A DNA stretch of 64,000 bases, taken from assembly GCA_001801995.1 (NCBI GenBank), contig MGZB01000011.1:3817-67816 (forward strand), in the 5' to 3' direction. How positions within the stretch are numbered: position 1 is the stretch's first letter; each line of letters begins with the position of its first letter. This document shows, in pieces, positions 53,542 to 57,092 of the stretch. The notes beneath the pieces were generated by a model. The model did not search any database. It saw only the letters and a list, made by a program, of their open reading frames with translations, and had not been told where the DNA came from. The stretch comes from Gammaproteobacteria bacterium RIFOXYD12_FULL_61_37. GTDB taxonomy: Bacteria; Pseudomonadota; Gammaproteobacteria; Chromatiales; Chromatiaceae. The position numbers were made by a program, and so were the translations under genes.

Positions 53542-53661
53542 GTAGGATGCGGTGAGGCACGAACCGCATCAATCGCGGCACCCGGTGCGGTTCGTACCTC
53601 ACCGCACCCTACGGGCTTCAGGCCGATAGCAACGCCGCTGGCGGCCTGAAGGCCGACCTAC
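53542..53661. repeat. REP cluster (family B inverted pair plus family A units)
   Basis: gtaggatgcggtgaggcacgaaccgcatc (53542-53570) is inverted relative to ggtgcggttcgtacctcaccgcaccctac (53584-53612). Then ...gggcttcaggccgat... and ggcggcctgaaggccgacctac (53640-53661) follow. Confidence 0.8.
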
Positions 53662-55118
53662 AAGTTTATTCCCAGCCAATCCCCCAGCGCCGCGCGCCAC
53701 TCCTCGCGCGGGCTGTCGAGGCTGAGGCCGGAGCCCTTGACCTGCACTTCCAGTCCCGCCAGCAGGGCGGGGATCGCCTCCGGCTCCACTCCCTCGAAGA
53801 GGCCGTCGTTGAAGGCGATGAGCCAGGCGATCTGGAACTCCACCGGCAGGGGGGCGAGGCGTTCTTGTTTCAGGATCTCCCGCAGCAGACGGCCCCGGCG
53901 GATGGCGGCCTCCATGGACGCCTCCAGGCGGGCGCCGAAGCGGGTGAAGACCTCCAGTTCCAGGAACTGGAGGTAATCCAGCTTCATGCGGCCCGCCTCT
54001 TCGCGGATGCGCGGGTGTTGCGCCCGGCCGCCGATGCGCGACACCGAGCGGCCGATGTCGATGGCGGGGCGGAAGCCGCCGCTGAACAGGGTCCGGTCCA
54101 GGTAGATCTGGCCGTCGGTGATGGAGATCAGATTGGTAGGGATGTAGCTGGCGATCTCGCCCAACTTGGTCTCGACGATGGGCAGGGCGGTGATGCTGCC
54201 GCCGCCGTTGGCCGCGTTGAGGCAGGTGGCCCGCTCCAGCAGTCGGGCATGGACGGAGAAGATGTCGCCGGGAAAGGCCTCGCGGCCCGGCGGCCGACGC
54301 AGCAGCAGGGAGAGTTCACGGTAGGTGTTGGCGTGGGTGGAGAGGTCGTCGTAGATAACCAGCACGTCCCGCCCCTGCTGCATCCAGAACTCGGCGGCGG
54401 CGCAACCGGCGAAGGGGGCCAGGTGTTGCAGGCCAGGCAGGCTACTGGCCTCCGCCGCCACGATCAGGCTGTATTCCATGGCGCCGAACTCGCGCAGGGT
54501 CTCGATGACATCGACCAGGGTGGAGCGCTTCTGGCCGATCAGGACATAGACGCAGAGGATGGACCGGCCGCGCTGGTGGATCACCGCGTCCAGGGCGATG
54601 GAACTGCGGCCCAGCCCCTCGTCGCCGATCAGCAGTTGGCGCTGCCCCTTGCCGATGGGGATCAGGGTGTCGATGACCTTGATGCCGGTGTAGAGGGGGT
54701 CGCGCACGAAGTCGCGGGCCGTGATGGGGGGCGAGGGCGGCTCCAGGGGCTGGCGGCGGGTGGAGACCGGCGGCGGCAGTCCGTCCAGGGGCGTCCCCAG
54801 GGGATCGATGACCCGGCCGAGCAAGCCGTCGCCCACCGGCAGGCTCAGGGTACGGCCGCTGCTCTGGACGCCGGTCCCGGCGGTCAGGGCATCGGTTTGG
54901 TGCAGCAGCACCGCTCCGACCAGCGCTTCGGTCAGGTCGAAGACCATGGCGCGGCTGCCATCCGCAAGGACCAGGACATCGTCCATGGCGGCCGAGGGCA
55001 AGCCGCTGATCCAGGCGATGCCGTCGCCCACCGAGACCACGGCCCCCCGTTCGCTGATCCGCAGCCCCGGCCGGTAATCGGCCAGCCAGCGGGCTTGGCG
55101 TTCCAGCAGGCCGCTCAT
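53658..55118 (-). CDS. atpA: Alternate (N-type) F1Fo ATPase alpha subunit
   Basis: 486 aa. Alpha-subunit blocks [56 protein letters not shown]. It directly follows a long b subunit with no separate delta gene. Confidence 0.88.
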
Positions 55119-55216
55119 GGGCGCCCGCCATGATCGTAGGTTGGGTTACGACTGCATGGATGCAGGAGGTAGGGCGAAGCAGGAAGCCAGAGCCGAGGCG
55201 CGCAAACCCCGTATTG

Positions 55217-55355
55217 ATCGTTCGCACGCTCCGGCGTGGGACTGCCGCTCGCGACGCTCCGGCGTCGCGGGTTGGCGGAAACCGGAGGTCTGCGTCGGCC
55301 CCGGGACGCTGGAGCGTCCCAGGATGCATTCCCACGCCGGAGCGTGGGAACGATC
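55217..55355. repeat. Array of four small REP hairpins (family C) inside the atpF-atpA spacer
   Basis: cacgctccggcgtg, gcgacgctccggcgtcgc, gggacgctggagcgtccc and cccacgccggagcgtggg. The outer arms gatcgttcgcacgc... / ...gcgtgggaacgatc are themselves inverted. Confidence 0.8.
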
Positions 55356-55382
55356 AAAAAGTCCTGGAAAAACAGGGTGGGA

Positions 55383-56126
55383 TTATTCCCCATGACCCGC
55401 CTCCGTGAAGGCTTGCAGCTCATCCCGCAGGTTCGCTGCCAGAATCCAGGGGCCGATGGCGATGTGCAGGCCCGCGATGAGGCTGTCATCCTGCTCGAAA
55501 CGAAGCGGGGATTCGTTGCCGGTCAGGGTGGCAAGGGCCTGGGTCAACCGGACCCGTTGCCCCTCGGTCAGGGGAAAGGCACTGGTGACGGTCATGGCAT
55601 TGCTCCCGGCCGGGTGGTTGCGCAGGGTGGCGATTTTGGTGGGGGGCAGTTGGCGTAATTCGGCAATGGCCAGCTCGACCAGCCGCGCCTCGGTCTCGGG
55701 GCCAGCCGCCGATGCCAGCAGTCGGGCGGCGAAGCGGGCCGCCTGGGCCAGGGCGGTTTGTTCCAGCCCACGCAGGGCGTCGGCCCGGCGGTGTTCCTCG
55801 GCCACGCGGCCCTTCTCCCGCTCCTTGTCGAGGTCGGCGTGCAGCTCGGCCCGGCGCTGGGTCCGTTCTGTCTCGATCTCACGGATCAGGGCCTCGCGCG
55901 CCAGGCGGCGCTCCTGTTCCCAGTCGGCGAGGCGGCCTTCGTACTGGTGACGCAGGGCCTCGGCGTTTTCGTGCAGCCCCTTGGCGTCGGACAGGGTCTT
56001 TTCGATACCGGCCCGGCGGCGGGCGATCACCTCCTGCACCGGACGGAAGAGAAAGTGTTTCAAGATCCACACCAGGACCAGGAAATTGACCATCTCCAGG
56101 AGAAAGGTGGTCCAGTTCAGTTCCAC
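55383..56126 (-). CDS. atpF: N-type ATPase b subunit (long, with a delta-like C-terminal part)
   Basis: 247 aa. One N-terminal transmembrane helix (FLLEMVNFLVLVWILKHFLF), then a long charged helix and an extra C-terminal domain. Confidence 0.8.
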   Translation of the reverse strand: MELNWTTFLLEMVNFLVLVWILKHFLFRPVQEVIARRRAGIEKTLSDAKGLHENAEALRHQYEGRLADWEQERRLAREALIREIETERTQRRAELHADLDKEREKGRVAEEHRRADALRGLEQTALAQAARFAARLLASAAGPETEARLVELAIAELRQLPPTKIATLRNHPAGSNAMTVTSAFPLTEGQRVRLTQALATLTGNESPLRFEQDDSLIAGLHIAIGPWILAANLRDELQAFTEAGHGE

Positions 56127-56141
56127 GGCCAGTCCCTCCGC

Positions 56142-56408
56142 CTACTTCAGCAGGTATTCGAGCAGGGGGTTGCGGAACAGCACGATGAGCACGATGACCA
56201 GCACATAGATGGCCAGGGACTCGATCATGGCCAGGCCGATGAAGAGGGTGCGCATGATCGAGCGTTCCGCCTCGGGCTGGCGCGCGAGGGCGTCCAGGGC
56301 GCGGCTGATGGCCCAGCCCATGGCAATGGCCGGGACCATGACCCCGAGGGCAATGGCGGCGATGGCGGCGACGGTCGAGACTTGGATGAAGCTGGATAGC
56401 TCGGGCAT
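56142..56408 (-). CDS. atpE: ATPase c subunit
   Basis: 88 aa helical hairpin with an ARQPE loop and the carboxylate in [10 protein letters not shown]. Confidence 0.9.
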
Positions 56409-56411
56409 GGG

Positions 56412-57092
56412 TTAGTCCTCCGGGTTGCGCTGTTGTGACTGGATACCGCCGGCGACGTAGATGAGCGCCAGCATGCCGAAGATATAGGCCTGCACCAGGG
56501 CCTCGACGATGTGCAGCATCAGGATGGGCACCGGGGCCAGGAAGCCCGCCACCAGCAGGATCAGCAGGGCCGCCATCTCCAGGCTCATCATGTTGCCGAA
56601 GAGCCGCACCGCCAGGGCGATGGTGCGGGTGACCTCGCCGATCAGGTGGAAGGGCAGCAGGATCGGGCTCGGCGTCAGGTAGTGGCGCAGGTAACCCTTC
56701 AGGCCCTGGATGCGGATACCGAACCAGTGGGTCGAGAGAAAGACCAAAATTGCCAGGGCCGCTGTGGCGGAGAGATCCCGCGTGGGCGAATCGAGCCCGG
56801 GGACCAGGCCGATCAGGTTGGCGATTGCCAGGAAAATCCAGAGTCCACCGATGAAGGGCATGATCCGATACACATGCTGAGGACTGACGGCGGCGACCGC
56901 CTCCTCGACGGCGCAGACCAGACCCTCAGCCGCCGTTTGCGCCGGACCCGGATCGATCGCCAAACGGCGCGAGACCGGCCAGGCAACCAGCCAAATCAGG
57001 GCCATGATCCCCCAGGTGGTCACCACCGTATCGGTGATCCTCAGGGGACCCAGTTGCAGCACCGGTTCGATGAGAAGGCTTACGTCGGACAT
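56412..57092 (-). CDS. atpB: ATPase a subunit
   Basis: 226 aa polytopic protein with the conserved Arg in ALAVRLFGNMMS. Confidence 0.9.
   Translation of the reverse strand: MSDVSLLIEPVLQLGPLRITDTVVTTWGIMALIWLVAWPVSRRLAIDPGPAQTAAEGLVCAVEEAVAAVSPQHVYRIMPFIGGLWIFLAIANLIGLVPGLDSPTRDLSATAALAILVFLSTHWFGIRIQGLKGYLRHYLTPSPILLPFHLIGEVTRTIALAVRLFGNMMSLEMAALLILLVAGFLAPVPILMLHIVEALVQAYIFGMLALIYVAGGIQSQQRNPED

Follow-up and report, generated by a model that had tools for sequence, protein, structure and literature searches.

What is left of an ATPase operon when only its middle can be seen: a dead fragment, or part of a working set whose other members lie elsewhere? The question is raised by a 64-kb window (by which we mean the whole stretch of DNA that was analysed, 64,000 nucleotides), part of a ~75-kb scaffold from the Rifle aquifer metagenome-assembled genomes (MAGs) Gammaproteobacteria bacterium RIFOXYD12_FULL_61_37 and RIFOXYA12_FULL_61_12. 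On its minus strand the window carries genes for subunits a, c, b and alpha of a rotary ATPase related to the N-ATPases, and besides these there are zero further atp genes across the 64 kb. An earlier note on this DNA described them as an operon present only as a four-gene fragment. This is wrong: an intact beta gene of the same clade lies on the same scaffold, 10.3 kb from a. In our opinion the genes of an H+-coupled, AtpR-less, N-type-like ATPase have here been dispersed and yet maintained, those for gamma, epsilon and AtpQ lying elsewhere in the genome, and we give this reading a probability of roughly 0.6. The lone a-c-b-alpha block does resemble a dead remnant; what corrects that misreading is that its catalytic partner stands just past the window and that the block itself is under selection.

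The order of the genes, the long b of 247 amino acids (aa) and the lack of a separate delta gene are as the note had given them, and all four open reading frames (ORFs) are indeed intact. The subunit genes found are the following.

56412-57092, minus strand: atpB, Fo subunit a, 226 aa (ORF and Pfam ATP-synt_A)
56142-56408, minus strand: atpE, Fo subunit c, 88 aa (ORF and Pfam ATP-synt_C)
55383-56126, minus strand: atpF, long b/delta fusion, 247 aa, GTG start (ORF and Pfam ATP-synt_B, OSCP)
53658-55118, minus strand: atpA, F1-like alpha, 486 aa (ORF and Pfam ATP-synt_ab)
67377-68774 (window-equivalent positions, outside the window), plus strand: solitary, intact beta gene, 465 aa, 10.3 kb from the start of a

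The retained genes and the selection on them

By Pfam, the ATP-synt_B domain of the window atpF covers residues 7-137 and the delta-like OSCP domain residues 165-242, while alpha has both the nucleotide-binding and the C-terminal domain of the alpha/beta family. Neither tblastn nor clade-specific profile hidden Markov models (HMMs) run on all six-frame ORFs find beta, gamma, epsilon or AtpQ in the window, so the note was right about their absence from the locus itself. The scaffold sequence that runs on past the window end (L092) agrees with the window over 11,949 nt, with 0 mismatches. The beta encoded there shares 81% identity with its clade counterpart in a Marinobacterium (L011). On the clade HMM it reaches 901 bits; its Walker A motif reads GGAGVGKT, and it agrees with the family at 206 of 208 conserved columns. 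Five subunits out of eight have thus been found for this organism: the window has a, c, b and alpha, and the part of the scaffold outside it has beta.

The four window proteins are not aberrant members of their family. Scored against 52-62 clade members, they deviate at 0 of 67 conserved columns in a, 0 of 35 in c, 0 of 15 in b and 3 of 171 in alpha, which is not above what members from intact operons show, and they rank 5-12 of 52-62 for centrality in the family alignment. Two diverged lineages allow the ratio of nonsynonymous to synonymous substitution rates (dN/dS, with dS the synonymous divergence) to be estimated: a sister lineage (L221, GCA_018812525.1), whose alpha is 91% identical to that of the window, and a third lineage (L085) at 92% nucleotide identity. 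The z values are against neutrality.

Subunit a, window vs L221: dN/dS 0.20, dS 0.29, z -6.6
Subunit c, window vs L221: dN/dS 0.12, dS 0.21, z -4.4
Subunit b, window vs L221: dN/dS 0.35, dS 0.39, z -5.1
Subunit alpha, window vs L221: dN/dS 0.19, dS 0.31, z -9.9
Four genes pooled, window vs L221: dN/dS 0.24, dS 0.31, z -13
Subunit alpha, window vs L085: dN/dS 0.21, dS 0.20, z about -8

The retained genes are under purifying selection. Intact operons give dN/dS values of 0.05-0.17 for alpha, 0.06-0.21 for a, 0.02-0.19 for c and 0.09-0.36 for b. No stop codon or frameshift is present in a, c, b and alpha of the window or of L221, nor in the parts of L085 that are available (alpha and the 3' end of b only), and there is none in the scaffold beta.

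The compact operon of relatives and the repeats at its breaks

A scan of species-representative genomes gave at least about 60 related loci, with an alpha 60-78% identical to that of the window, in Gammaproteobacteria (Methylococcaceae, Vibrio, Marinobacterium, Microbulbifer and others), Betaproteobacteria, Geobacter, Nitrospira and further taxa; this species itself is not among the loci listed. In about 55 of the at least 60 loci the genes stand, as far as the contig extends, in the compact order beta-epsilon-AtpQ-a-c-b-alpha-gamma; this was checked with NCBIfam models for Marinobacterium and with precomputed Pfam calls for three more operons. Between AtpQ and a of these relatives there is no call for AtpR (PF12966) and no room for it, the gap being 3-120 nt. 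All eight genes are tightly packed in the closest intact relative found, a Sedimenticola sp. MAG (L223) whose alpha is 82% identical to ours. The b-alpha spacer of the window, 264 bp, compares with 10-50 nt or an outright overlap of the two genes in intact relatives. Flanking genes, compared in order to reconstruct the ancestral locus, show no synteny with those of relatives, and two candidates for gamma that had a multi-source profile (P0181, P0183) sit inside intact operons of other organisms.

Some relatives depart from the compact order. Methylobacter svalbardensis (L017) has a-c-b-alpha-gamma followed by an inverted AtpQ-epsilon-beta block; L023 has a-c-b-alpha-gamma with no beta-epsilon-AtpQ in the 8 kb upstream; and in L018, L019 and L043 the operon spacers are enlarged by hundreds to thousands of nt. 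These are independent operon disruptions within the clade, and L017 and L023 are precedents for a split of this type of operon. A different kind of change is seen in the MAG Gammaproteobacteria bacterium AC2.22 (L078), a mosaic whose beta, epsilon, AtpQ and a are clade-typical (65-81% identical to L011), while c, at 43%, and alpha, at 52%, stand much further off and deviate at 18 and 60 conserved columns, respectively. Such a pattern suggests that part of the operon was replaced through recombination with a different subtype.

The sister lineage is intermediate. In it epsilon and AtpQ come first, then an insertion of 6.6 kb and a second copy of the AtpQ 3' end; a-c-b follows, and a spacer of 264 nt separates it from alpha. 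There is no beta before epsilon and no gamma after alpha. The duplicated piece (7868-7960 of L221) comprises the last ~30 AtpQ codons, encodes an identical C-terminal peptide and lies 71 nt in front of a. There is no gene between the AtpQ remnant and a, either in the sister or in the window. Three stages are visible: the compact operon, the sister with one insertion, and the scattered state described here. Between AtpQ and a the insertion carries, at 3352-7757 of L221, a 1075-aa N6/N4 DNA methyltransferase and an AAA_15/21 ATPase, and it looks like a defence island.

In the window, the places where the operon is interrupted are occupied by repeats, several of them of the repetitive extragenic palindromic (REP) type.

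55119-55382, no strand: b-alpha spacer, 264 bp, occupied by repeats
55214-55357, in the b-alpha spacer: REP-B, 144-bp palindromic cluster of four hairpins
55224-55239, 55252-55267, 55304-55319 and 55332-55347: the four short G+C hairpins
53642-53661, minus strand: REP-A (GTAGGTCGGCCTTCAGGCCG), with the alpha stop codon provided by its GTAG head
53542-53612: REP-C inverted pair (GTAGGRTGCGGTGAGGYACGAACCGCA), between alpha and pilA
57093-57140, minus strand: remnant of the ancestral AtpQ-a intergenic region, with a ribosome-binding site
57191-57294: 105-bp repeat at the upstream breakpoint, 98 nt from a, just before gtrA
49524-49628: inverted copy of the 105-bp repeat

These features bear out what the note had seen by eye: about 100 nt upstream of atpB before the 105-bp repeat and gtrA (98 nt by our count), a 264-bp spacer with four hairpins between b and alpha, and REPs followed by the pilA region downstream of atpA. 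The hairpin pattern of the spacer has these four matches only in the 64 kb, where 0.03 would be expected by chance. Near alpha the spacer contains the remnant of an older REP that is still present in the sister, and the REP families of the spacer differ between sister and window. Upstream of a, about 45 nt of the AtpQ-a intergenic region are left in the window, and homology to the sister stops about 33-48 nt before the start codon. Downstream of alpha come REP-A, the REP-C pair and then pilA. REP-A sits at the very junction where gamma follows alpha in relatives; the junction so formed is common to L085, which shares the whole b-spacer-alpha-REP-pilA structure with the window, and is not shared by the sister, where the alpha tail is normal. 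Members of the REP-C family are also present in the sister, including one inside its epsilon-AtpQ spacer. Finally, beta too has repeats on both sides, upstream a degenerate version of the spacer hairpin and downstream another repeat. Every junction of the dispersed pieces carries a repeat, and we infer that the repeats caused the rearrangements.

The following course of events would account for all this. The ancestral state would be the single operon beta-epsilon-AtpQ-a-c-b/delta-alpha-gamma, whose intergenic spacers were invaded by REP-type repeats. Insertions and rearrangements would then have pulled blocks apart and made separate transcription units of them. As a result beta would have come to stand alone, 10.3 kb off and on the opposite strand, while a-c-b and alpha stayed together across a repeat-filled spacer as the largest surviving block; gamma, epsilon and AtpQ would no longer be adjacent. 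If so, the locus documents how repeats settle in the spacers of a tight operon and how insertions separate its genes without inactivating them.

A simple inversion between the two 105-bp copies was considered as the cause of the split and rejected, since the far copy adjoins an ABC-F gene and not epsilon or AtpQ. The copies are 96-98% identical and enclose 7.6 kb with three Uma2 genes, two pilins, fimB and alpha-b-c-a. Each stands just upstream of an outward-facing gene (the ABC-F ATPase and gtrA, respectively) in the same relative orientation, so the repeat could be a duplicated leader or promoter, or else mark the ends of an invertible or mobile segment. An Rfam scan of 49-58 kb returned sub-threshold chance matches only, and the 105-bp repeat was unmatched. 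Another observation concerns the 17-nt hairpin core of the b-alpha spacer (CACGCTCCGGCGTGGGA). It is common in metagenome contigs that are unrelated to this one, where it often forms inverted pairs with a spacing of 60-120 nt, which marks it as part of a REP-like family of broad distribution and not as an element specific to this organism. None of the at least 119 loci listed with this core (L095-L213, 819 kb) has an N-type atp gene, a negative that is uninformative about the missing genes.

How the scattered genes may be explained

The earlier note left the choice between a decaying remnant of an operon and a split operon with partners elsewhere. The evidence favours the split (beta 10.3 kb away, epsilon and AtpQ in the sister, no decay of the genes), and the reading as decay is disfavoured. 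The note had also said what would speak for a functional split operon: gamma, beta and epsilon of the same lineage at another locus, and co-expressed. This has been found for the location of beta only; no gamma, epsilon or AtpQ was detected for this organism. If the set is indeed maintained, the complex would still be made, which requires gamma and epsilon elsewhere in the genome, and the enzyme, to go by the analogy of the N-ATPases, would probably serve mainly as an ATP-driven ion pump alongside the other rotary ATPases of the cell.

A number of points weigh against this reading, and we prefer to state them together. Epsilon, AtpQ and gamma are not on the ~75-kb scaffold, its left end included, and because the absence of gamma and epsilon would preclude any working rotary enzyme, function is not proven. 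With 0.19-0.21, the dN/dS of alpha reaches or exceeds the highest values of intact operons and is about twice their median; thus the dN/dS check that the note had proposed speaks for constraint, but not for an entirely normal alpha. In relative-rate tests against the intact Sedimenticola operon the window branch is modestly longer with some outgroups and not with others, which fits some relaxation of constraint. Where REP-A was inserted, it took the place of the final ~12 codons in the variable tail of alpha, both in the window and in L085. No convincing promoter for a or alpha was detected, the promoter and terminator scan giving nothing above shuffled expectation, and at the b stop codon there is a weak terminator-like hairpin. 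One strain contig (L220, ENA ERZ28563756 scaffold_37433), 99.8% identical to the window, has a premature stop, GAA to TAA, at codon 9 of a (~57066-57068). Nor do we count the clean intergenic position of the breakpoints as evidence of selection, since repeats that reside in spacers would yield such breakpoints anyway.

As for the strain contig, a GTG at codon 11 offers a possible restart, and other members of the family begin about there; the contig also lacks 27 nt in gtrA. The stop could be a real variant or an assembly error at low coverage.

Most of these points would suit the main alternative, in which the locus is a non-functional remnant in early decay, with function lost recently and constraint so far only slightly relaxed: gamma, epsilon and AtpQ are lost, and the five genes that remain are useless but have not yet accumulated disabling mutations. 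The missing genes, the fast alpha, the acceleration in some comparisons, the strain with the early stop and the repeats that invaded the spacers and the alpha tail are all on its side, and so is the precedent of Chlorobaculum tepidum, whose half locus was read as possibly degenerate by Koumandou and Kossida (PMC4154653). Nevertheless we consider it unlikely. A dN/dS of 0.2-0.24 over a dS of 0.2-0.3 rejects neutrality with z = -8 to -13, and if the genes had evolved neutrally we estimate that ~20-30 stop-creating substitutions would be expected at this divergence in their ~3.1 kb; there is none in the window, L221 or L085. The five genes retain their conserved functional residues (168 of 171 columns in alpha, 206 of 208 in beta). 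The junction of alpha, REP-A and pilA without gamma is common to L085, which means that alpha stayed constrained after gamma had left the locus. Besides, the displaced epsilon and AtpQ of the sister lineage are intact.

A second alternative accepts the selection and changes the role. In this case the organism's own gamma and epsilon are gone, and the products either use a rotor borrowed from the canonical F-type enzyme (its gamma and epsilon) or have a non-rotary function. Purifying selection that persists without gamma and epsilon in the neighbourhood would be explained, and V/A-type B and D genes on the same scaffold mean that the cell has several rotary systems. We hold this to be very unlikely. 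On TIGR01146 (cut-off 194) the clade gamma of the relatives reaches 39 bits; so great a difference from canonical gamma speaks for partners that have adapted to each other. An epsilon of its own is still present in the sister, it is simpler to suppose that the missing genes have moved, and to our knowledge there is no precedent for a borrowed rotor, which we count against that version. Taken more broadly, a borrowed rotor or a non-rotary role under selection, or in a milder form the assembly of a complex from eight genes that repeat-mediated rearrangement has left singly scattered, seems hardly any more probable to us. Should the milder form be true, this lineage would be a natural experiment on operon-independent assembly.

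That a repeat-rich region was mis-joined in assembly or binning, so that the four genes only seem isolated, is suggested by the repeats at every junction and by a scaffold end near a repeat, but it is excluded for practical purposes, because assemblies made independently (ENA scaffolds of several samples, contigs by MEGAHIT and by SPAdes, JGI contigs and two MAGs at NCBI) agree on the same 20-kb arrangement at 99.9-100% identity and the key junctions are also present in the diverged L085 and L221.

For a dispersed and maintained gene set there is a practical consequence: counts of N-type or second ATPases that go by operon synteny or by the presence of atpR miss or mis-score cases like this one. 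The understanding of rotary ATPases itself is unchanged, unless gamma and epsilon are truly missing. We add that no beta or gamma with a RIFOXY name is among the homologues listed (seeded with the closest relatives) or in the cluster member lists. Such name-based negatives carry no weight, since the real beta of the organism is likewise missing from the best 120 listed.

The kind of ATPase, its precedents and its neighbourhood

The earlier note had matched the locus to the N-ATPase described by Dibrova, Galperin and Mulkidjanian (2010), with the operon atpDCQRBEFAG, AtpR as its hallmark and c subunits with Glu in both helices (PMC2881411). The match stands for the architecture and for the fusion of b with delta, and fails for AtpR, for the helix-1 Glu, for the EST motif and for the TIGR0330x/0332x cut-offs. 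Indeed, relatives of the window genes have the N-ATPase order beta-epsilon-AtpQ-...-a-c-b-alpha-gamma, and the clade shares with N-ATPases the missing delta gene, the long b with a delta-like C-terminus and a patchy distribution across phyla that suggests lateral transfer. However, it is without AtpR (TIGR03165/PF12966), and in its c subunit Met stands where the helix-1 Glu would be and Leu replaces the Thr of ESTxxY. Of the conserved atpD-C-Q-R-B-E-F-A-G operon, only B-E-F-A is contiguous in the window, with D 10.3 kb off.

Model scores tell the same story in numbers. None of the subunits found reaches the "alternate F1F0" cut-offs (TIGR03305/03306/03321-03324): TIGR03306, 03322, 03321 and 03324 all match window subunits, each below its curated cut-off. 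With the NCBIfam models, a scores 356 bits on PRK13420 (cut-off 272) against 189.5 on TIGR03306 (cut-off 302), and alpha 697 bits on PRK13343 (cut-off 554) against 570 on TIGR03324 (cut-off 750.5). The best model for c is PRK13468, with 96 (cut-off 116), and the "alternate F1F0" model gives 86 (cut-off 131); for b no model is above its cut-off, TIGR03321 being the top match with 116 (cut-off 225). The scaffold beta scores 589 on its "alternate F1F0" model, where the cut-off is 752. Alpha and beta do pass the general cut-offs of TIGR00962 and TIGR01039, which makes them F-type in the broad sense. Within the clade, a, c, b and alpha of the window align over their full length, with 43-85% identity to L011 of Marinobacterium. 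On this evidence the window genes are an AtpR-less, predicted H+-coupled relative of the N-ATPase and belong to a widespread clade.

The same clade has been met in Nitrospiraceae, where AtpR-less N-type operons atpDCQBEFAG lack atpR and E32, have Leu for Thr and are probably H+-coupled (ISME J 2025, PMC12342949); the Nitrospira loci L035, L044 and L049 are among our relatives at 60-68% identity. Like them, the window genes have ESL..Y and not EST..Y, no helix-1 Glu, no atpR and a b fused to a delta-like domain. The PF09527-type AtpQ is also alike, though it is seen in the relatives and the sister lineage only. The models PRK13343 (alpha), PRK13420 (a) and PRK13468 (c) correspond to this AtpR-less clade. 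What differs is the arrangement, a single operon in Nitrospiraceae, whereas here only a-c-b-alpha is contiguous and beta is on the other strand 10.3 kb away. The canonical F-type ATP synthase (atpIBEFHAGDC) is more remote: it has a separate delta gene, atpH, a short b and the order a-c-b-delta-alpha-gamma-beta-epsilon, while in the window b is fused to the delta-like domain and alpha comes directly after b, and the relatives put beta-epsilon first.

The residues that matter for ion transport can be named. In subunit a the stator Arg is R163, within an RLFGN motif conserved clade-wide. In subunit c the ion site comprises M30, E63-S64-L65 and Y68, and formal alignment to the c subunits of known structure (PDB 3zk1, 2wie, 1yce) places M30 at the position of Ilyobacter Q32 and Fusobacterium E32, so the IESLAIY motif and the Met at the helix-1 Gln position, which the note had assigned by eye, are both confirmed. 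The helix-2 MIESLAIY and the helix-1 Met are invariant across the clade. With Met for the helix-1 Gln or Glu ligand and Leu for the Thr of ESTxxY, Na+ binding is not predicted, and the ATPase of the window is predicted to translocate H+. A further peculiarity concerns alpha, whose residues 165-172 form the non-canonical P-loop GDEGLGRS. In the alpha of the whole AtpR-less clade (relatives L003-L067) GDEGLGR[ST] replaces the canonical Walker A GDRQTGKT, with the P-loop Lys changed to Arg, which suggests that the non-catalytic sites bind nucleotides differently or no longer bind them.

Split N-type loci and the AtpR-less H+-type clade have been described already (PMC4154653, PMC12342949). Koumandou and Kossida (2014) report two loci without atpR in Nitrosococcus halophilus, one of them split in half, and a half locus in Chlorobaculum tepidum (PMC4154653). 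The split locus of Nitrosococcus is likewise gammaproteobacterial, N-type-like, without atpR and non-contiguous, and poses the same question of function. By their description those loci are in two halves; here there are at least three pieces, with repeats at each junction, and there is comparative evidence of constraint (dN/dS, the sister lineage). Canonical F-type operons are also naturally split, for example into Fo and F1 operons in alphaproteobacteria and cyanobacteria (PMC4154653), and show that a rotary ATPase can be assembled from several transcription units. Such splits are old and conserved and run along the borders of functional modules, while here the split is lineage-specific, beta is isolated and gamma is separated from alpha. 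To these the present case adds a finer scattering of the genes, an instructive sequence of stages and estimates of selection.

It remains to describe the surroundings. Between a and beta lie gtrA, a glycosyltransferase gene, sdhCDAB-sdhE and four regulatory or other genes; after beta come a MazE/PIN pair, YaeQ and, where the scaffold ends, the genes for V/A-type subunits D and B. At its left end the scaffold has his genes and a ParE toxin and no atp genes. Classical N-ATPases always accompany a canonical F- or A-type enzyme as a second rotary ATPase; no canonical F-type operon is seen in the 75 kb. The V/A-type D and B genes occupy 18214-20212 of L092 (window-equivalent ~70.3-72.3 kb), at a distance of 1.5 kb from the solitary beta. 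MazE-PIN-YaeQ-VatD-VatB is enclosed by a 73-nt inverted repeat with 88% complementarity (16820-16892 and 20231-20303 of L092). One copy occupies the place next to B in which the V-type A gene would be expected, ~1 kb before the end of the scaffold. The V-type operon may also be interrupted by repeats.

The G+C content at third codon positions (GC3) of the atp genes is 0.82-0.92, in line with the 0.85-0.86 of host housekeeping genes. Two assemblies of the same population (L083, L084) differ from the window over 20 kb by 25 and 15 single-nucleotide polymorphisms, all confined to a 300-bp stretch inside alpha (54078-54372) and mostly synonymous. Many of the variant alleles equal those of the diverged lineages L085 or L221, and the cluster looks like a homologous recombination tract.

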